A DNA stretch of 64,000 bases from Escherichia coli (GCF_009931435.1 NZ_CP043414.1); one strand, 5' to 3'; shown: positions 10,303 through 58,160, counted from the stretch's first letter. Numbers and translations are program-made. The notes: generated from the sequence alone by a model not told the origin.

Positions 10303-10349
10303 TTTACCGGTGGATGTCGGTGCGGCTGGCCTACGCTCTCGCACTGACC

Positions 10350-10437
10350 TTCAGGCTTGATAAGACGCGTTAAGCGTCGCATCAGGCAATGTGCACCCTA
10401 CGTTGGATGCGGCGCGAGCGCCTTATCCAACCTACGG
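10350..10437. repeat. REP/BIME palindromic repeat cluster
   Basis: Tandem REP-like units (GATAAGACGCGTTAAGCGTCGCATCAGGC; GGATGCGGCGCGAGCGCCTTATCC) between yiaT and the GH127-like gene. Confidence 0.6.
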
Positions 10438-12402
10438 ATGGCAATGCTTTTCCTCATTCACCCAGATCCGCATTTCGCCTTCACCCCGGTTGGCCCAGCT
10501 AAACCACGGGATAAACGTCAGAGTTTGCGGCTGGCGTTTGGCTGGCGCACTATCGTAATGCCACAGCTGTTGCTGCTCTGGATTGCTCTGTTCATACCGG
10601 TAACCCGGTGCCTGGATTAAGATCTTATGGTGGAACAATCCATTACCTTCAAATGTCGTAAATAGCGCATCGGCGGGCAGCCACAGGTTATGCAGTGACT
10701 CGCCGTTGTCGGCCTGTTCCAGGCAATACACCAGCGGGCCGCGCTGAATCGCCACTTTTCCGGCGACGTGACGCACCAGCGGGTTACCGTAAACGCGACG
10801 TACCGGCATTGGCAAAGTCAGATTCAGCGTGTCGCCCTCCTGCCATTCGCGGGTAATGTGCAAATACCCTTTACGAATATCCTGCTCGACCTCTTCCCCA
10901 TTCAATGTAATCTGCGGCTGTGTGCACCAGTCCGGCAGACGTAAAGCCAGCGTATGACGCACCGGCTGGGGCGATTCAACCGCAATTGTCACCTGTTCCT
11001 GCCACGGATAGTTTCCGCTAACCCGCAGACGCAGCGTGCCATTTTCTACCGGCACTTCCATGCTGTTTCCTGCGTAGATGTTGATATACAACGCATCTTC
11101 ACGCGGCGTGTAGAGATAATGACCAATCGAGGTTAGCACACGGGCGATATTTGGCGGACAACAAGCGCAACCAAACCAACGCTGGCGGATCGGCTTAACG
11201 TGATCGTAGATATGGTTGAATTTCAGCGATTTTGGATGTACTTCCAGCGGATTCACATAGAAGAAATGTTTGCCATCCAGCGCCATGCCGCCGAGCACGG
11301 TGTTGTACAGTGCGCGCTCCATCACATCGGCATATTGACTGTCGCCTTCCATTTCCAGCATTCGCCGGGCGAACATCATCAGACCGATGGAAGCACAGCT
11401 TTCGGCGTATACCGTGTCATTCGGCAGATCGTAATCGCTGCTGAACGCTTCGCCGCTGCTTTGTGAGCCAATGCCGCCGGTAATATATAACTGACGCTGG
11501 GCCATATTGTTCCACAGCCGCAGGCAGTCCTGACGCTTGCTTTCATCGTGACTTAAACGCGCGAGATGCGCGACGCCGGTCATCAGGTAGACAAAACGTA
11601 CCGCGTGACCAATGGCGGTTTGCTGCTGTGCGATGGGCAAATGTGCCTGGCTGTAGGCTTTGTCTTTCACCATCCACGCCGGGCCGTAGGTGTGCCAGTG
11701 CGAGGTCTGCCCGCGCTTTTCATATTCCTGGTCGTAATAGTGCGGTTGCGCACCACGCTGTTCGACAAAATAGTGGGTCAGCGCCAGGTAGCGCGGCTCT
11801 TCGGTCACTTCATACAGGCGCATTAGTGCCAGTTCAATTTCCGGGTGACCAGGATAACCGTGTAACTTACTTTCACCTGGACCAAATACGCTGTCGATAT
11901 GATCGGCCAGACGGCAAACCACTTCCAGCAAGCGCCGCTTGCCCGTGGCCTGGAAGAAGGCGACTCCGGCTTCAATCAGATGACCGGCGCAGTAAAGTTC
12001 ATGACACTCCGCCAGATTGCTCCAGCGTTCTTCGGGCGCTTTTACCGTAAAGTAAGTATTGAGATAGCCATCTTCGCACTGGGCGGAAGCGACCAGTTCG
12101 ATTACCTCGTCAGCAGTTTTTTCCAGTTCGGCATCCGGCTTCTGGCACAGCGACCAGGCTACCGCTTCCAGCCATTTGGCGACGTCGCTGTCCTGAAACA
12201 CCATCCCGTAAAATTCACCGTCTTGCAGTCCTGCGGCAATGCGAAAGTTTTCAATCGCATGGCTGGGTTCCGCTTCTGGGATACGATCGTTCAAGGCATC
12301 CCACTGATAAGGAATCACCACGTCGCGGACCAGTTGTTGGTACTGACCGAGGAACGGATCGCTGACCGTCAGTTTATGCAGATCGACTTCCGAAATGTTC
12401 AT
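10432..12402 (-). CDS. Glycoside hydrolase family 127 (DUF1680, beta-L-arabinofuranosidase-like) protein, cytoplasmic
   Basis: 656-aa product from ATG at 12402, preceded by AAGGAG with 6-nt spacer; no signal peptide; E-x-C (AESCAS) and C-x-CC (FGCACCPPN) motifs consistent with the Zn/Cys active site described for GH127 HypBA1. Confidence 0.75.
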   Translation of the reverse strand: MNISEVDLHKLTVSDPFLGQYQQLVRDVVIPYQWDALNDRIPEAEPSHAIENFRIAAGLQDGEFYGMVFQDSDVAKWLEAVAWSLCQKPDAELEKTADEVIELVASAQCEDGYLNTYFTVKAPEERWSNLAECHELYCAGHLIEAGVAFFQATGKRRLLEVVCRLADHIDSVFGPGESKLHGYPGHPEIELALMRLYEVTEEPRYLALTHYFVEQRGAQPHYYDQEYEKRGQTSHWHTYGPAWMVKDKAYSQAHLPIAQQQTAIGHAVRFVYLMTGVAHLARLSHDESKRQDCLRLWNNMAQRQLYITGGIGSQSSGEAFSSDYDLPNDTVYAESCASIGLMMFARRMLEMEGDSQYADVMERALYNTVLGGMALDGKHFFYVNPLEVHPKSLKFNHIYDHVKPIRQRWFGCACCPPNIARVLTSIGHYLYTPREDALYINIYAGNSMEVPVENGTLRLRVSGNYPWQEQVTIAVESPQPVRHTLALRLPDWCTQPQITLNGEEVEQDIRKGYLHITREWQEGDTLNLTLPMPVRRVYGNPLVRHVAGKVAIQRGPLVYCLEQADNGESLHNLWLPADALFTTFEGNGLFHHKILIQAPGYRYEQSNPEQQQLWHYDSAPAKRQPQTLTFIPWFSWANRGEGEMRIWVNEEKHCHP

Positions 12403-12412
12403 CTTGTGCTCC

Positions 12413-13813
12413 TTAAGGCTGTACATGACGCTGACGCAGGTCGCTAGCAATGCGTGACATCATAGGGTTATTGAGTTTGCAAAAGCGGATCGCCATCGCC
12501 AGCAGCAGGTGGAACAGCGCAGGCAGCAATGTTTCCATCGCCGCGATCCCGCCAAGCGAACTGGCGGTCTGGTTTTCCACGCCTGGCTGGTAGGCGACAA
12601 AAATAAACAGCAGGCTGATGATCCCGGCGCTGGAGGCCCAGGCCAGCTTGATGAAAAACAGATTGAAGGCGAAGTTCATGCCGGAAGAACGTACGCGGGT
12701 TTTCCACTCGCCGTAGTCATCGGCAAAGGCCATCAATGAGAAGTGCAATGGCAATGTGAAGCCAAGAATCACGCCATTACCAAGGATCACCGCCAGCCAC
12801 AGCGTTTGATAAGCCGGGCCAGAAGGCAGGAACCACATCAACACCGCCAGCGCGGCGAGGAGCAGGTTGGTGTAGTAGTAAATTTTGACGGTATCGAAAC
12901 GTCGCGTTAACGGGCTGACAATCACCGAGCCGATAATGGAGGCGAAGGTGACCATAGTGAAGAACAGCGACGTGTAGCCCGTACTGCCTTGTAAGACGTA
13001 GGTAATGAAGTACATATACCCACCGCCGCGAATATTAAAGACGTTAATCAGCAGGAAAGACATGACCAGCATCAGCAGCAGTTGGTCGTTGTTTCGCAGC
13101 CCGGCAAGATGTTCGCGCAGGGTAAATTTCCCCATTGTGGAGAGTGGCACCCGTTCACGAACCCAGAAGAAACAGCACAGGAACATCACCACAGCGATGG
13201 CGCACAGCACGCCGACGCCCAGTTGATAGCCGCGCGCGGCATTACCCTGACCGAAGAGATCTACCATCCACGGCAGGCCAACCGAAACCAGAAATCCCGC
13301 TACGCCGCAGAGAACGAATCGCCAGGACTGGCAGGAGATCACTTCATTGTGGCGGGTGGTCATGGTGTTGATCAGCGCGCAGTACGGCACGTTGATGGCG
13401 GTATAACCGACTGAAAGGAGCAGGTAAGTGCCGAACGCCCAGGCGATTTTTACTCCCATGCTGGCATCTGGCACGGTGAACGTCAGGATGCCGATAATGC
13501 CGATGGGAATGGCAATCCACAACTGCCACGGACGAAAGCGCCCCCAGCGACTTTGCGTCCGGTCGGCAATGACGCCCATCACCGGGTCGGAGATGGCATC
13601 AAACACGCGCAGTGCAATAAACAGCGTGCCGACCAGCGCCGGAGTTAAGCCAAAAACGTCGGTGTAGAAAAAGGTGAGAAAGTTCATGATCAGGCAAGTT
13701 ATTACGGTGCCGCCTGCGTCACCCAGGCCGTAGCCTATTTTTTCCCGTACAGATAACGCATCGTCAATTTTACCTTTAGCGATATCAGCGGTAGTAATCG
13801 GTGTAGAGGTCAT
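12413..13813 (-). CDS. GPH-family (MFS superfamily) glycoside/cation symporter
   Basis: 466-aa ORF; about 12 hydrophobic helices; N-terminal region with conserved Asp (GYGLGDAGG...[18 protein letters not shown]) typical of MelB/YicJ-like transporters; stop lies 10 nt upstream of the GH127 start. Confidence 0.75.
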
Positions 13814-14038
13814 AGATATTCCTCGTGCATAGGGAGCAATTTTTAGTTTTATTGAAATGACATGATTAATTCTGCCGTGAACGGGAATATCAACAAGGCG
13901 AGAAAAGAGTAAAAAAAGGTGACGATTCCGACCTGAATTTAAAAGTGTGAATTGGATCAGGTGAAATTAATGTTTTTGATTAATAATCAAAAGGTAATGT
14001 GTTTAATCATTAATGAATAAGCGGGAAATTACATATCA

Positions 14039-14854
14039 ATGCTCGAATTATCCATGACGTTACCGATTAAAGTGCAAAATGGTGGATTATTTATTTCCCG
14101 TGGCGTAGGGAGGCATCCTGCAAGGCGGCTGGAGTCATGGGAAATTATCTTTGTCGAAAAAGGTCGATTAACGATTCAGGAAGAAGAGCAGATATTTCAG
14201 GTTGATGCGGGAGAGAGTTTATTGCTCTGGCCGAAACGTCAGCACGTTGGTGTTGAGGATTTCCCCGCTGACCTTAAATTTTACTGGCTACATTTTGAGG
14301 TTAAAGCGCCGGACAACGATCCGCGCTGGCTCACTCATCTTAGCGTGCCGCAGCACACCAAAGTCGCCGACCCTCAGGCGTTGAGTGCACTGTTTCGCCA
14401 GTTTTTAAGCGAGCAGGAAAAACATCAGCGTAGCCCTGCGCTGGAGTTTATTGTGTTGTTGATTTTACAGCAGCTTACCTTCGACGTACGTCTTGATGAA
14501 CAAGCCGATACTGCAGGCACCGCCCTTGCCTGGAAAGCACAAAAGCTGATCCGCACGCAATATCATCGCCCGCTTTCTACGGCAATTTTGGCCCGCGAGC
14601 TCTACTGTAATGCCGATTATCTTGGGCGCGTGTATCGTCGGGTATTTCGTTTGACGTTGACAGAAGCTATCCATCGCCAAAGAGTGCGCGAAGCCGAAAA
14701 GCTGTTAATTAGCGAAGCGCGATCGCTCACGGAAGTGGCGGCGTTGTGCGGGTTTAATGACGTTGGCTATTTCCGACAGATTTTTCGCAAACACACCGGT
14801 TTAACGCCAGCTGCGTGGAAGCGACGTTACAGTAAGGAACATATCAATTCGTAG
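14039..14854 (+). CDS. AraC/XylS-family transcriptional regulator
   Basis: 271-aa ORF; N-terminal cupin-like sugar-binding domain, C-terminal double HTH (LTEVAALCGFNDVGYFRQIFRKHTGLTPAAWKRRY); divergent from the transporter gene. Confidence 0.8.
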   Translation: MLELSMTLPIKVQNGGLFISRGVGRHPARRLESWEIIFVEKGRLTIQEEEQIFQVDAGESLLLWPKRQHVGVEDFPADLKFYWLHFEVKAPDNDPRWLTHLSVPQHTKVADPQALSALFRQFLSEQEKHQRSPALEFIVLLILQQLTFDVRLDEQADTAGTALAWKAQKLIRTQYHRPLSTAILARELYCNADYLGRVYRRVFRLTLTEAIHRQRVREAEKLLISEARSLTEVAALCGFNDVGYFRQIFRKHTGLTPAAWKRRYSKEHINS

Positions 14855-15581: not shown

Positions 15582-16435
15582 ATAAATCCAGCCTCCTGCA
15601 TACGCGCTTCAATCCAGCGCCGTGCCTGAATAATCTCCAGCACCGGCTCTTTGGCTTTTTCGGTCCACATCTCAATCAGAAATGATCCGCGATAGTTCAG
15701 TTCATGCAGCGTTTTGAAGATGCCAACGAAATCGACGCAGCCTTCGCCAAACGGCACGTCGCGGAACTGTCCGGGGCTTTGCTCGGTGACTGGCTGGGTG
15801 TCTTTCAGGTGGATGGCGGCGATACGGTCAATGCCCAGTTTCAGTTCGGCGGGAACATCATTGCCCCAGGCGCTAAGGTTGCCGACGTCCGGGTAGACGG
15901 TGAACCACGGCGAGGCGAGCATCTCGTCCCACTTTTTCCATTTGCTGATGGAGTTCATAAACGAGGTATCCATAATCTCCACCGCCAGCATTACTTGTGA
16001 TGCCGCCGCCTGTTCGACAGCCCACGTCAGCCCTTCAGCAAAACGTTGCCGGGTACCTTCGTCATGGTCTTCGTAATAGACGTCGTAGCCCGCCAGTTGA
16101 ATGGTGCGAATACCGAGATCGCACGCCAGATGAATTGCTTTGCTCATGATCTCCAGTGCTCGCTGGCGTACCGCGTCGTCACGGCTACCAAAGGGAAAAC
16201 GACGATGTGCGGACAGGCACATCGACGGGATCCCAACGCCCGTTTCGATCATCGCGGCAACCAGCGAAGTCCTTTGTGCGGCGCTCCAGTCAAGGCGCGA
16301 CAGACGCTCGTCAGTTTCATCCACCGACATTTCGACAAAATCAAAGCCACAGCTTTTCGCCAGCACCAGCCGCTCCGGCCAGGAGAGATCTTTCGCCAGT
16401 GCTTTTTCATAAATCCCTAACGGATGATTACGCAC
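15575..16435 (-). CDS. sgbU: L-xylulose-5-phosphate 3-epimerase
   Basis: 286-aa product from GTG at 16435 ([13 protein letters not shown]...); overlaps sgbH stop by 8 nt; xylose-isomerase-like TIM barrel family. Confidence 0.85.
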
Positions 16436-18586: not shown

Positions 18587-19573
18587 TTATTGCACCTCAT
18601 CCACGGCTTTCAGCAGTTCATCGCCCTGCGGAACATCTTTTACAAACATGTCGCGGACCTGAGTACCCAGTACGTCGCTAAAGGCTTTGCGATCAAGTTC
18701 GGTGATGACTTCCACGCCAGCGTCTTTCATGCCGTCGATGATTTTTTGCTGATTTTCGGCGACCAATTTGCGCTGGTAATTACCCGCTTCTTGTGCAGAT
18801 GAAATTAGCGCTTGCTGGAACTCCGGGCTTAAGCCATCAAACTTCGCTTTGTTGATCACCACCAGAAGTGGGGAATAGGCATGGTGCGTCAGAGAAAGGT
18901 ACTTCTGCACTTCATAAAATTTGGCTGACCAGACGACGTTGATGGGATGTTCCTGAGCGTCGATAGTGCGCGTTTCCAGCCCGGTATAGACTTCGGCAAA
19001 CGGCATCGGAATCGGGTTAGCGCCAAAGACTTTGAATGCGGCGATATTCATCGGGCTATTGTTGGTGCGTATTTTCAGCCCTTTCAGGTCGGCAGGTGTT
19101 TTAACTGGCTGGCGTGAGTTGGTGACATCGCGCCAGCCGTTTTCCCAGTAGGCCAGTACTTTCAGTCCCTTACCTTCAAGGGAGGCCTTCAGTTCATCGC
19201 CGACTTTGCCGTCGAGCGTTTTATGCGCGTGGGCGGTATCGCGGAACAGGAACGGGACATCAAGCAGGTTCATCACTGGTGATAACCCGGCAAAGTTATT
19301 CGACCCGGACATCTCCATATCAATAGTGCCGCCACGCACGCCGCTGATCATCGCTTGCGCGTTGCCGAGAGTACTGTCCGGGAACAATTTTAATTTCAGC
19401 TCACCTTTGGTTCTCTCCTGTAATAATTCATTAAATTTTTTCGCTGCAATATGTTGTGAGTCGATTTGTGAAGTTTCATAACCGAAACGTAATGATTGTG
19501 CCGCCAGCGAAGATGTGCTGAACGCCGCCACTCCGGCAATTAATAAAGCGTAGGTTACAGAGCGTAATTTCAT
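18587..19573 (-). CDS. yiaO: TRAP transporter periplasmic solute-binding protein (2,3-diketo-L-gulonate)
   Basis: 328-aa ORF with signal peptide; DctP-family. Confidence 0.9.
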   Translation of the reverse strand: MKLRSVTYALLIAGVAAFSTSSLAAQSLRFGYETSQIDSQHIAAKKFNELLQERTKGELKLKLFPDSTLGNAQAMISGVRGGTIDMEMSGSNNFAGLSPVMNLLDVPFLFRDTAHAHKTLDGKVGDELKASLEGKGLKVLAYWENGWRDVTNSRQPVKTPADLKGLKIRTNNSPMNIAAFKVFGANPIPMPFAEVYTGLETRTIDAQEHPINVVWSAKFYEVQKYLSLTHHAYSPLLVVINKAKFDGLSPEFQQALISSAQEAGNYQRKLVAENQQKIIDGMKDAGVEVITELDRKAFSDVLGTQVRDMFVKDVPQGDELLKAVDEVQ

Positions 19574-19585
19574 TATATTTTCCTT

Positions 19586-20863
19586 TTAATTAATCCATTT
19601 CAACGGGAGGATGATGAGATCGGGAATAAAAACAAATACGACTAATAATGAATATAAAACCAGGACGTAAGGGAAAACGCCTCTGACTGCATCATCGAAT
19701 TTGAGTTTAGCCACCCCTGAAATAACGTTAAGCACATTACCGATAGGCGGTGTAATTAAGCCGATTGAGCAGTTGATGATAAACATGACTCCGAAGTAAA
19801 TCGGATCGATTCCTGCCTCTTTAACTAAAGGCATTAATACCGGGGTAAGAATTAACACCGTCGGCGTTAAATCCATGACCATGCCGACAATCAGGATAGC
19901 CACCATAATGACGATAAACAGCAGACGCGGTGAATCGACCAACGGTTGCAGTAAATCAGAAACCATCATCGGCAGTTCAGCAATGGTGATCAGCCAGGCG
20001 GAAACTTGTGCCGAGGCCACCAGAAACATTACCACTGAGGTGGTTTTCGCCGCGCCAATAAGTACATGCCAAAGTGTGGCGAAGGTCATTTCACGGTAAA
20101 TAACCGTGGCGACAAATAACGCATAGAAAGCAGCAACGGCCCCGGCTTCGGTAGGGGTAAACAGACCGGAGCGAAAGCCGCCAATAATAATGACCGGAAG
20201 AAATAGCGCCCAGATACCGGAAACAAAAGAGTGCCAGATTTCTCGTTTCGTTGCTTTTTGCTGACGGGGTAAATTAAGACGACTGGCCTGCCACCACCAT
20301 GTGAGCATCAGCGTTGCGCCCATCATAATGCCTGGGGCAATGCCCGCCATAAACAACTTACTGATGGATAATCCGCTGGAAACACCGAAGATAATAAACG
20401 GAATGGAAGGGGGAATAATTGGCGCGATAATCCCGCCAGAGGCAATCAGCCCCGCAGCACGGTTGACCGGGTAGTTAGCGCTGCGCATCATCGGCACCAG
20501 TAGCGCGGCAACGGCGGCGGTATCCGCAACAGCAGAACCGGAAAGGCTCGCCATAATCATTGCCGCCAGCACGCCTACGTAGCCCAACCCGCCTGGTTTA
20601 TGCCCGACCAGTTTCATCGGCAGGTCAACAATGCGTTTTGATAAGCCGCCCGCATTCATGATTTCACCCGCCAGTACAAAGAACGGAATCGCCAGCAGGG
20701 AGAAGCTGTCAGCACCGTTTACCAGCGTTTGCGCCATGATCTGGACATCAAACATATCCAGCCAGAACATAAGCGCCGCCCCGCACAACAGTAGCGACCA
20801 GGCAATAGGCAAACCGATGGCAATGCCACCCAACAGGCAGCCCAGAAAAATCAGCACAGCCAT
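19586..20863 (-). CDS. yiaN: TRAP transporter large permease subunit
   Basis: 425-aa polytopic membrane protein, DctM family. Confidence 0.9.
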   Translation of the reverse strand: MAVLIFLGCLLGGIAIGLPIAWSLLLCGAALMFWLDMFDVQIMAQTLVNGADSFSLLAIPFFVLAGEIMNAGGLSKRIVDLPMKLVGHKPGGLGYVGVLAAMIMASLSGSAVADTAAVAALLVPMMRSANYPVNRAAGLIASGGIIAPIIPPSIPFIIFGVSSGLSISKLFMAGIAPGIMMGATLMLTWWWQASRLNLPRQQKATKREIWHSFVSGIWALFLPVIIIGGFRSGLFTPTEAGAVAAFYALFVATVIYREMTFATLWHVLIGAAKTTSVVMFLVASAQVSAWLITIAELPMMVSDLLQPLVDSPRLLFIVIMVAILIVGMVMDLTPTVLILTPVLMPLVKEAGIDPIYFGVMFIINCSIGLITPPIGNVLNVISGVAKLKFDDAVRGVFPYVLVLYSLLVVFVFIPDLIILPLKWIN

Positions 20864-43245: not shown

Positions 43246-43262
43246 TAACGTCGTTATTAAAA

Positions 43263-43288
43263 AGCCTGCCATCTGGCAGGCTTTTTTA
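43263..43288 (+). terminator. Rho-independent terminator of glyQS
   Basis: agcctgcc-atct-ggcaggct stem-loop followed by a T6 run. Confidence 0.75.
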
Positions 43289-55553: not shown

Positions 55554-55562
55554 AATTCGAAA

Positions 55563-55589
55563 AGCCTGCTCAGCGAGCAGGCTTTTTTG
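55563..55589 (+). terminator. Rho-independent terminator after proK
   Basis: agcctgctc-agc-gagcaggct hairpin followed by a T6 run. Confidence 0.75.
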
Positions 55590-56552: not shown

Positions 56553-58160
56553 ATGCGTATTTCCTTGAAAAAGTCAGGGATGCTGAAGCTTGGTCTCAGC
56601 CTGGTGGCTATGACCGTCGCAGCAAGTGTTCAGGCTAAAACTCTGGTTTATTGCTCAGAAGGATCTCCGGAAGGGTTTAACCCGCAGCTGTTTACCTCCG
56701 GCACCACCTATGACGCCTCTTCCGTACCGCTTTATAACCGCCTGGTTGAATTTAAAATCGGCACCACTGAAGTGATTCCGGGCCTCGCTGAAAAGTGGGA
56801 AGTCAGCGAAGACGGTAAAACCTATACCTTCCATCTGCGTAAAGGTGTGAAGTGGCATAACAACAAAGAATTCAAACCGACGCGCGAACTGAATGCCGAT
56901 GACGTGGTGTTCTCGTTCGATCGTCAGAAAAACGCACAAAACCCGTACCATAAAGTTTCTGGCGGCAGCTACGAATACTTCGAAGGTATGGGCTTGCCGG
57001 AGCTGATCAGCGAAGTGAAAAAGGTGGACGACAACACCGTTCAGTTCGTGCTGACTCGCCCGGAAGCGCCGTTCCTTGCTGACCTGGCAATGGACTTCGC
57101 CTCTATTCTGTCAAAAGAATATGCTGACGCGATGATGAAAGCCGGTACGCCGGAAAAACTGGACCTTAACCCAATCGGCACCGGTCCGTTCCAGTTACAG
57201 CAATATCAAAAAGATTCCCGTATTCGCTACAAAGCGTTTGATGGCTACTGGGGCACCAAACCACAGATCGATACGCTGGTCTTCTCTATTACCCCTGACG
57301 CTTCCGTGCGTTACGCTAAATTGCAGAAAAATGAATGCCAGGTGATGCCGTACCCGAACCCGGCAGACATCGCCCGCATGAAGCAGGATAAATCCATCAA
57401 CCTGATGGAAATGCCGGGGCTGAACGTCGGCTATCTCTCGTATAACGTGCAGAAAAAACCACTGGATGACGTGAAAGTTCGCCAGGCACTGACCTATGCG
57501 GTGAACAAAGACGCGATTATCAAAGCAGTGTATCAGGGCGCGGGCGTATCAGCGAAAAACCTGATCCCGCCAACCATGTGGGGCTATAACGATGATGTTC
57601 AGGACTACACCTACGATCCTGAAAAAGCGAAAGCCTTGCTGAAAGAAGCGGGTCTGGAAAAAGGCTTCTCCATCGACCTGTGGGCGATGCCGGTACAGCG
57701 TCCGTATAACCCGAACGCTCGTCGCATGGCAGAGATGATTCAGGCAGACTGGGCGAAAGTCGGCGTACAAGCGAAAATCGTTACCTACGAATGGGGTGAG
57801 TACCTCAAGCGTGCAAAAGATGGCGAGCACCAGACGGTAATGATGGGCTGGACTGGCGACAACGGGGATCCGGATAACTTCTTCGCTACCCTGTTCAGCT
57901 GCGCTGCCTCTGAACAAGGCTCCAACTACTCAAAATGGTGCTACAAACCGTTTGAAGATCTGATTCAACCGGCGCGTGCTACCGACGACCACAACAAGCG
58001 TGTTGAACTGTACAAACAAGCACAGGTCGTGATGCACGATCAGGCTCCGGCACTGATCATCGCTCACTCCACCGTGTTTGAACCGGTACGCAAAGAAGTT
58101 AAAGGCTATGTGGTTGATCCATTAGGCAAACATCACTTCGAAAACGTCTCTATCGAATAA
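56553..58160 (+). CDS. dppA: Dipeptide ABC transporter periplasmic binding protein
   Basis: 535-aa ORF with signal peptide (AASVQA). Confidence 0.95.
   Translation: MRISLKKSGMLKLGLSLVAMTVAASVQAKTLVYCSEGSPEGFNPQLFTSGTTYDASSVPLYNRLVEFKIGTTEVIPGLAEKWEVSEDGKTYTFHLRKGVKWHNNKEFKPTRELNADDVVFSFDRQKNAQNPYHKVSGGSYEYFEGMGLPELISEVKKVDDNTVQFVLTRPEAPFLADLAMDFASILSKEYADAMMKAGTPEKLDLNPIGTGPFQLQQYQKDSRIRYKAFDGYWGTKPQIDTLVFSITPDASVRYAKLQKNECQVMPYPNPADIARMKQDKSINLMEMPGLNVGYLSYNVQKKPLDDVKVRQALTYAVNKDAIIKAVYQGAGVSAKNLIPPTMWGYNDDVQDYTYDPEKAKALLKEAGLEKGFSIDLWAMPVQRPYNPNARRMAEMIQADWAKVGVQAKIVTYEWGEYLKRAKDGEHQTVMMGWTGDNGDPDNFFATLFSCAASEQGSNYSKWCYKPFEDLIQPARATDDHNKRVELYKQAQVVMHDQAPALIIAHSTVFEPVRKEVKGYVVDPLGKHHFENVSIE

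Follow-up and report, generated by a model that had tools for sequence, protein, structure and literature searches.

The window analysed here is a stretch of Escherichia coli DNA of 64,000 nucleotides (64 kb), which carries a cassette of three genes. Two of them make up a leftward operon. The first gene of this operon (12413 to 13813, minus strand) encodes a GPH-family (MFS_2) glycoside:cation symporter, identified by Pfam MFS_2 (E = 3e-73) and by NCBIfam TIGR00792 gph (333 bits, above the cut-off). The second (10432 to 12402, minus strand) encodes a GH127 glycoside hydrolase of the beta-L-arabinofuranosidase family with the Pfam GH127 catalytic, middle and C-terminal domains (E = 6e-112). Its coordinates were taken from the RefSeq CDS of E. 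coli R32_14_1F; the mechanical open reading frame reaches 12450. The third gene (14039 to 14854, plus strand) encodes an AraC/XylS-family regulator of 271 aa with a cupin-type AraC_binding domain and HTH_18 (also HTH_AraC) in Pfam. Compared with named regulators, the protein is the equivalog of none; the top match, AraC, reached 62.7 bits where the cut-off is 208.

The symporter and AraC-type genes are divergent, and the earlier note on this DNA had described an AT-rich region of 225 bp between them. This description is accurate: the intergenic region extends from 13814 to 14038 (225 bp) and has a G+C content of 32%, compared with 51% for the window.

In E. coli the cassette is located between yiaT and sgbE, the latter of which is labelled "araD" in RefSeq. 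It occurs in approximately 2,310 to 2,320 of 5,426 complete E. coli genomes (~43%), always on the chromosome, and its carriers include BL21, E. coli C, O157:H7 and O145. The intergenic region of the window is identical to that of E. coli R32_14_1F and 2017-02-2CC, and nearly all of the ~2,300 E. coli genomes with the cassette are at least 97.8% identical over the 225 bp. Outside of E. coli, the same layout (GH127 <- GPH <-> AraC-type) was found at 79 of 80 other Enterobacterales genome loci. The cassette is thus widespread vertically in Enterobacterales and is not recently foreign.

K-12 MG1655 has just two pseudogene stubs at this site (3750813 to 3751109), ysaC and ysaD. By BLAST, ysaC is the 3' end of the regulator gene, comprising its last ~100 bp (window 14751 to 14854), and ysaD is an internal fragment of the GH127 gene (window 10540 to 10729). 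From these matches it follows that K-12 has deleted the equivalent of window positions 10730 to 14750, with the whole control region included. The two stubs are deletion scars, and K-12 is left without the symporter gene, most of both other genes and the control region. The comparison with MG1655 covered window 10330 to 10539 as well as 10730 to 14750. A search of the literature on E. coli GH127/DUF1680, ysaC/ysaD and arabinofuranosidase returned nothing on regulation of the locus, which we attribute to the loss of the control region from K-12. One pangenome study names GH127 as one of the accessory genes whose distribution cosegregates with the invasiveness of E. coli isolates associated with IBD (PMC11879602).

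The regulator gene of the window has a mosaic allele relative to E. coli R32_14_1F, with the divergent part at 14150 to 14750 in the N-terminal, ligand-binding portion. Between 9001 and 14000 the two sequences differ by 0 to 2 mismatches per 250 bp, except for 9 at 13251 to 13500. The count rises to 36 and 27 mismatches per 250 bp at 14251 to 14750 and is low again after 14751. The regulator protein is 94 to 95% identical to the common E. coli alleles and 97% identical to that of E. whittamii. This pattern suggests a recombination patch in the sensor domain. Divergence from R32_14_1F is also raised at 16001 to 16250 (30 mismatches per 250 bp) and at 19001 to 19750, in the yiaK-S/sgb region, which suggests further recombination mosaicism around the cassette.

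Conserved elements of the intergenic region

Orthologous loci were collected using a profile of 17 regulator homologues, which yielded 80 Enterobacterales loci at one genome per species, 79 of them with the same arrangement. The intergenic region of the window was compared with 78 orthologous regions, and counts are given over these n = 79 sequences. The regions range from 215 to 383 bp in length and were aligned with MAFFT, then re-read without gaps in a register fixed by an invariant 9-mer. Third codon positions in the first 90 codons of both flanking genes were used as a neutral benchmark, which gave 0.67 to 0.68 bit per column with 1 to 3% of columns at or above 1.8 bits. Across the 225-bp region, sharp conserved footprints are separated by unconserved spacers of 0.3 to 0.5 bit.

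A 46-bp block at 13891 to 13936 (block A; minus strand, CAACAAGGnnAGnnAAAAGTAnAAAAAGGTGACGATTCCGACCTGA) is near-invariant, with a mean of 1.6 bits and 23 of its 46 columns at or above 1.8 bits (n = 79). It is the most informative element of the region and had been overlooked in the earlier note. Block A contains a weak 21-bp direct repeat of AAnAAGG, with starts at 13892 and 13913. In a per-column comparison of the block with itself, an offset of 21 was best, but barely (0.49, vs 0.47 at an offset of 6). A position weight matrix built from either half scores the other half negatively; the halves are only weakly alike. When the 64-kb window was searched for a double repeat of this kind as a sign of a second regulon target, the search returned, besides the locus itself, just a weak match with two mismatches at 57622. 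Block A is probably the binding site of the AraC-type activator, arranged as two predicted half-sites, with one end of the block on the predicted -35 element of the operon promoter. Activator sites of the AraC/XylS family comprise two asymmetric half-sites of 17 to 21 bp each, as a rule in direct repeat at a spacing of ~21 bp. The remark in the earlier note that AraC-family proteins more often bind direct repeats was right, and the likely site of this direct, asymmetric type is the 46-bp block.

The operon promoter is predicted on the minus strand, with a -35 element TTGTTG (13896 to 13891) that overlaps the edge of block A, a -10 element CAGAAT (13874 to 13869) and a start near 13862. On the plus strand, the -35 element reads CAACAA in 69 of 79 sequences, and the -10 element reads ATTCTG or ATTTTG in 75 of 79 at a fixed distance from block A, with 1.76 bits; the footprint ATT[C/T]TGC at 13869 to 13875 likewise has 1.76 bits. 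The 16 bp between the two elements (13875 to 13890) are unconserved at 0.44 bit. TTGTTG-16 bp-CAGAAT is predicted to be a weak sigma-70 promoter. Between block A and the GPH start codon there are anywhere from 65 to 233 nt; such variation is what a free 5' UTR after a constrained promoter should show. A consensus promoter scan of 13700 to 14150 that required both a -35 and a -10 element found no sigma-70-type site, a result that is expected for activator-dependent promoters and lends no support to the predictions. An alternative -10 element within block A on the minus strand, TATACT in most species and TTTACT in Escherichia, was rejected; it has no -35 element and would place CRP at about -54.5.

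The earlier note had also drawn attention to a CRP-like half-site, TGTGA. This motif was located at 13946 to 13950 both by direct reading and by scripts, and it turned out to belong to a deeply conserved CRP-like site; TGTGA itself is found in 79 of 79 sequences at a fixed spacing to the neighbouring block. The complete 22-mer (AAGTGTGAATTGGATCAGGTGA) occupies 13943 to 13964, with the core TGTGA-N6-TCAGG at 13946 to 13961 and its centre at 13953.5. In its left half (AAGTGTGA, 13943 to 13950), TGTGA is invariant (79/79) and is preceded by AAA, AAG or AAC in 75 of 79 sequences; AAAnTGTGA at 13941 to 13950 carries 1.62 bits. GATC at 13955 to 13958 is present in 78 of 79 sequences (1.98 bits), and the pattern of the site reads AAnTGTGA-N4-GATC. 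The right half of a CRP site is TCACA, placed 6 bp after the left half; here it is TCAGG in the window and matches TCACA at three of five positions. In the orthologues just TC is conserved, following an invariant GA, and 61 of 79 sequences match TCACA at two of five positions. One-sided natural CRP sites exist, for instance in ara and gal. Block A and TGTGA are separated by 22 nt in all 79 sequences, and the distance from TGTGA to the regulator ATG is 90 to 94 nt.

Measured from the centre of the CRP-like site, AATAAT, the predicted -10 element of the regulator promoter, begins at 28.5 bp and CAGAAT at 79.5 bp. Relative to the predicted starts, the centre is at about -41 for the regulator promoter and at about -92 for the operon promoter. 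The positions that define the classes of CRP-dependent promoters are established (as reported by Busby and Ebright, 1999). Permitted centres are -41.5, or -61.5, -72.5, -82.5 and -92.5.

The regulator promoter is predicted on the plus strand, where the asymmetric element T[T/G]AATAATCA[A/G] (13980 to 13990) holds the -10 element AATAAT (13982 to 13987), with a predicted start at 13994 to 13996. AATAAT is at the same position in 62 of 79 sequences, and in these 62 it follows TGTGA at 36 nt; the 8-nt core AATAATCA is invariant in 65. A sigma-70 -10 element has an A in second and a T in sixth place and is located 6 to 9 nt upstream of the start. The hexamer matches TATAAT at five of six positions, these two among them, and both are kept in the diverged -10 regions found at the same place in Trabulsiella (GATATT) and Mixta (GATAAT). 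The A at 13996 is invariant in the 65 core-bearing sequences and is a plausible start site. The promoter has no recognisable -35 element. If AATAAT is taken as -12 to -7, CRP would be centred at -40.5, the canonical position being -41.5. Conservation around AATAAT extends over 8 to 11 nt, more than a -10 hexamer would call for.

Four genera depart from this arrangement. In Buttiauxella, Cedecea and Atlantibacter (nine loci) and in Mangrovibacter (two loci), AATAATCA is missing at +37, and a -10-like sequence, either CTACACT (TACACT) or CATAATCAA (CATAAT), is found ~18 nt further downstream; in the ungapped register, TACACT of Buttiauxella is displaced by ~19 nt. These genera keep the CRP site, block A and a distance of 93 nt from the CRP site to the ATG. 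The arrangement suggests that their regulator promoter has been remodelled from a class II to a roughly class I geometry.

Closer to the regulator gene, AAGCGGGAA (14019 to 14027, plus strand) is conserved at ~1.8 bits among the 64 majority-group sequences, 12 to 20 nt upstream of the ATG. A TGAATAT-like stretch after it, within 14019 to 14037, is also conserved. With at least 12 nt between them, the G-rich part of AAGCGGGAA and the ATG are further apart than is usual for a Shine-Dalgarno sequence. The element is probably a ribosome-binding or 5'-UTR element; it could also be a translational control element or another protein site.

Palindromes of the intergenic region

The palindromes that had been reported are present by direct reading and by scripts. 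TTGATTA-A-TAATCAA at 13976 to 13990 is the inner part of a longer, perfect 9-1-9 inverted repeat, TTTTGATTA-A-TAATCAAAA (13974 to 13992), and the 10-bp palindrome TCATTAATGA occupies 14007 to 14016. When the region was shuffled 5000 times with dinucleotides preserved, 0.8% of the shuffles had a perfect arm of at least 9 (loop 0 to 3). In the 64-kb window there are four perfect repeats with an arm of at least 9 and a loop of at most 3, where 0.93 are expected from shuffles of local composition, and two of the four look like terminators with a G+C-rich stem and a T run; one AT-rich repeat of this size is thus about what chance would provide per window. A 5+5 palindrome such as TCATTAATGA occurs in 73% of the region shuffles, and TGTGA-N6-TCA occurs three times in the window, where 1.85 are expected. 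Statistics alone single out none of the three motifs, and the 10-bp palindrome is plainly at the level of chance.

Two of the repeats counted in the window, at 43259 to 43286 and 55560 to 55586, are perfect, G+C-rich (arms of 13 and 12) and followed by T runs; they look like intrinsic, possibly bidirectional, terminators. The other AT-only perfect inverted repeat, at 2628 to 2650, is a 10-3-10 repeat of TTTATTAAAA-ATA-TTTTAATAAA.

Conservation tells the three motifs apart: TGTGA is strongly conserved, the 9-1-9 repeat only in part and asymmetrically, and the 10-bp palindrome not at all. A dyad-symmetric operator is expected to keep both arms or to change them together. The right arm does not vary among the 65 sequences with an intact core AATAATCA. 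On the left arm, position 13978, the partner of an invariant C, is G in 17 of 65 sequences and mostly C or T otherwise, and at position 13979, the partner of an invariant T, 33 sequences have A and 29 have G. Perfect arms of at least 7 are limited to 11 of 65 sequences, which are spread across Escherichia, C. amalonaticus, some Enterobacter, Yokenella and Kosakonia. No compensatory arm changes were found among the 65 core-bearing sequences. With an invariant right arm and a free left arm, the conserved unit is asymmetric, and on this comparative reading the 9-1-9 symmetry in E. coli appears as a lineage-specific coincidence in AT-rich DNA.

The columns of the 10-bp palindrome average 0.16 bit, below the third-codon-position benchmark of 0.67 bit, and outside of E. 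coli TCATTAATGA is in no orthologue of the set. In E. whittamii the 9-1-9 repeat is intact and the 10-bp palindrome is gone. By its conservation, this palindrome is judged to be a product of chance without conserved function. Both palindromes are intact in six of six E. coli alleles compared, which is uninformative because the diversity of the region in E. coli is too low (at least 97.8% identity). The proposal that these palindromes are candidate operators does not hold up against the free left arm, the 11 of 65 sequences with an arm of at least 7, and the 0.16 bit of the 10-bp palindrome together with its loss in E. whittamii.

Several other features of the palindromic segment were considered and rejected. 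A 27-bp direct repeat, seen as a 23-nt repeat at 13968 to 13990 and 13995 to 14017, is not conserved, even in E. whittamii. A structured RNA at the palindrome would be a weak AT hairpin (-6.2 kcal/mol, z = -2.4), located upstream of both predicted starts under the model below, and an Rfam search of 13500 to 14400 at E <= 1 gave no match. A small open reading frame of 16 codons (MFLINNQKVMCLIINE, ATG at 13970 to TAA at 14020) spans both palindromes; it has no Shine-Dalgarno sequence, and its ATG and frame are missing in other genera. As a leftward -35 element (TTGATT, minus strand), the palindrome has no -10-like hexamer 16 to 18 bp downstream.

A model of the control region and its alternatives

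We consider it reasonably probable that the 225-bp region is a shared control region with two divergent promoters in the style of ara, rha and mel, governed by CRP and the AraC-type activator, and that the conserved site centred at 13953.5 is a putative cAMP-CRP site at which one dimer serves both promoters. The model fits because the footprints are well above the neutral benchmark, the spacings are fixed and the geometry agrees with the CRP promoter classes. In addition, the gene for the cognate AraC/XylS regulator adjoins its target promoter, a linkage that is kept in 79 of 80 other genome loci. From conservation, fixed spacings and gene content, we infer the transcription starts, the proteins that bind and the direction of regulation.

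In this model, cAMP-CRP would occupy the site centred at 13953.5. The regulator gene would be transcribed rightward from the -10 element AATAAT, with CRP at about -40.5 to -42.5 in place of a -35 element, which would be a class II arrangement like that of melR. The GPH-GH127 operon would be transcribed leftward from its weak promoter (-35 TTGTTG, 13896 to 13891; -10 CAGAAT, 13874 to 13869), which would need the AraC-type protein on block A, from approximately -30 to -75 and over the -35 element. The same CRP dimer would be at about -92 of the operon promoter, as at araBAD and rhaBAD. The inducer is presumably a glycoside taken in by the symporter. The 9-1-9 repeat would not be an operator: its right arm and centre would form the -10 region of the regulator promoter, and its left arm would be AT-rich spacer that is complementary by chance in Escherichia and a few other lineages. 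The conserved footprints and the predicted promoters on both strands agree with the earlier description of a divergent promoter region. Its fallback suggestion, overlapping divergent promoters of which the palindromes form a part, is in keeping with the evidence as well, given the predicted AATAAT inside the 9-1-9 repeat.

The element T[T/G]AATAATCA[A/G] might be an autoregulatory half-site for the AraC-type protein, besides or instead of a -10 element, in the manner of araO1 or melR site R. We regard this as possible but doubtful. It would account for an element longer than a hexamer and for the invariant A at 13996, and autoregulation via a site at their own promoter is common in AraC-family regulators (PMC2377442). 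In Escherichia and C. amalonaticus, moreover, the adjoining CAAAAGGTAATG matches the distal half of block A, AAAAAGGTGACG, at 9 of 12 positions by direct reading. However, this AAAAGG resemblance to block A is restricted to a few close relatives, and when matrices of the block A halves were applied to the 79 sequences to the right of the CRP site, they found no third half-site analogous to site R or araO1 above shuffled background.

It is improbable that the AT-rich right half (13965 to 14020), both palindromes included, is an architectural or silencing site for H-NS, Fis or IHF. The region has 25 to 32% G+C inside a window of 51%, AATCAA-N4-[T/A]AA is conserved, and 13985 to 13997 offers an IHF candidate, AATCAAAAGGTAA, which is WATCAANNNNTTR-like. 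Nevertheless, the second T of the TTR motif is never there, and 13996 is A in 65 of 65 sequences. An AT tract would give a diffuse signal, whereas the conserved core is short and keeps a constant position with respect to the CRP site. Although the cassette is accessory in E. coli, its vertical spread through Enterobacterales argues against silencing of recently foreign DNA.

Quite improbable, in our judgement, is a true dyad-symmetric operator at the 9-1-9 repeat for a dimeric global regulator (FNR, Fur, ArgR type or other) acting in Escherichia. The rarity of a perfect 9-bp arm among region shuffles (0.8%) speaks for it, as does the intact repeat in E. whittamii and in all six of the sampled E. 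coli alleles. Against it, chance alone would supply about one such repeat per window, most orthologues have lost the symmetry but kept an invariant right arm, and the E. coli alleles are uninformative in a region that is at least 97.8% identical in nearly all ~2,300 carriers. TTGAT-N5-ATCAA resembles an FNR box; the FNR consensus is TTGAT-N4-ATCAA, and the spacer of TTGAT-TAATA-ATCAA is one base too long at 5. The Fur consensus is the 19-bp GATAATGATAATCATTATC, to which hand alignment gave 10 of 19 matches at 13976 to 13994 and 11 of 19 at the second palindrome (13996 to 14014), the latter of which is not conserved. The idea that the palindromes serve a global regulator thus finds no support from conservation in its FNR, Fur or IHF versions.

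GATC within the CRP-like site is better conserved than the rest of the right half-site. Its presence in 78 of 79 sequences goes beyond the needs of CRP recognition, so it may reflect an extra constraint, or it could be a Dam methylation target that makes CRP occupancy and both promoters methylation-sensitive. Another version is that TGTGA-N4-GATC is recognised by some factor different from CRP. We hold both the Dam version and this last one to be very improbable. The Dam reading, if true, would add an epigenetic or replication-coupled layer to a sugar operon.

Finally, the notion that the region is generic promoter DNA whose footprints reflect low divergence, for which the near-chance frequency of each of the three originally reported motifs could be cited, deserves next to no credence, given that, in the same sequences, synonymous sites are saturated (0.67 bit) and spacers are at 0.3 to 0.5 bit, whereas block A, TGTGA/GATC and both -10-like elements hardly vary from genus to genus.

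Significance

Under the preferred model of a shared CRP and AraC-type control region, the palindromes are real but mostly incidental, and the conserved elements that we predict to be regulatory are beside them or overlap them only in part. As an architecture, the proposed arrangement is a textbook one. The locus is common, being present in ~43% of complete E. coli genomes and in dozens of other enterobacterial species, and the cassette could open beta-L-arabinofuranosides from plants to E. coli. The footprints provide a directly testable map, consisting of a CRP-like site, a 46-bp activator block and two promoter cores.

Comparison with known systems

The locus resembles araC-araBAD in that a sugar operon and the gene for its regulator diverge, the regulator being a protein with a cupin domain and a double HTH. 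A conserved block of ~45 bp ends on the predicted operon -35 element and matches the extent of araI1-I2, and a single CRP site is just upstream of the block, at about -92 here relative to the predicted start. In araBAD the CRP site is at -93.5. Unlike in the arabinose system, the regulator is not AraC (62.7 bits vs an equivalog cut-off of 208). The araI sequence is TAGC-N7-TCCATA, and block A has no resemblance to it when the two are compared by eye. A further difference from araC is that the CRP site would here also overlap the -35 region of the regulator promoter.

In this last respect the locus is closer to melR-melAB. As predicted here, the regulator promoter is class II with CRP over the -35 region, and the regulator gene is divergent from an operon with a GPH-family symporter and a glycosidase. 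At melR, CRP overlaps the -35 element of a regulator gene that is divergent from a symporter-glycosidase operon, and AraC-family monomers bind asymmetric sites of 18 bp (PMC2377442). The two systems differ in dimensions and in the number of sites. The mel starts are 237 bp apart, whereas the predicted starts are ~133 bp apart here. The mel region has four MelR sites and a second CRP site for melAB, with site R responsible for autorepression; here there is one CRP site and one 46-bp block, with no detectable equivalent of site R.

The proposed operon promoter is also like that of rhaSR-rhaBAD, with an AraC-family activator on tandem half-sites over the -35 element and CRP immediately upstream. 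At rhaBAD, an activator dimer binds tandem half-sites that overlap the -35 element, and CRP is at about -92.5. In its placement and length, from approximately -30 to -75 of the predicted start, block A corresponds to the RhaS site as it does to araI1-I2. The rhamnose system uses a cascade of two regulators, from RhaR to RhaS, and CRP is not class II at rhaSR, whereas the locus described here has one regulator only.
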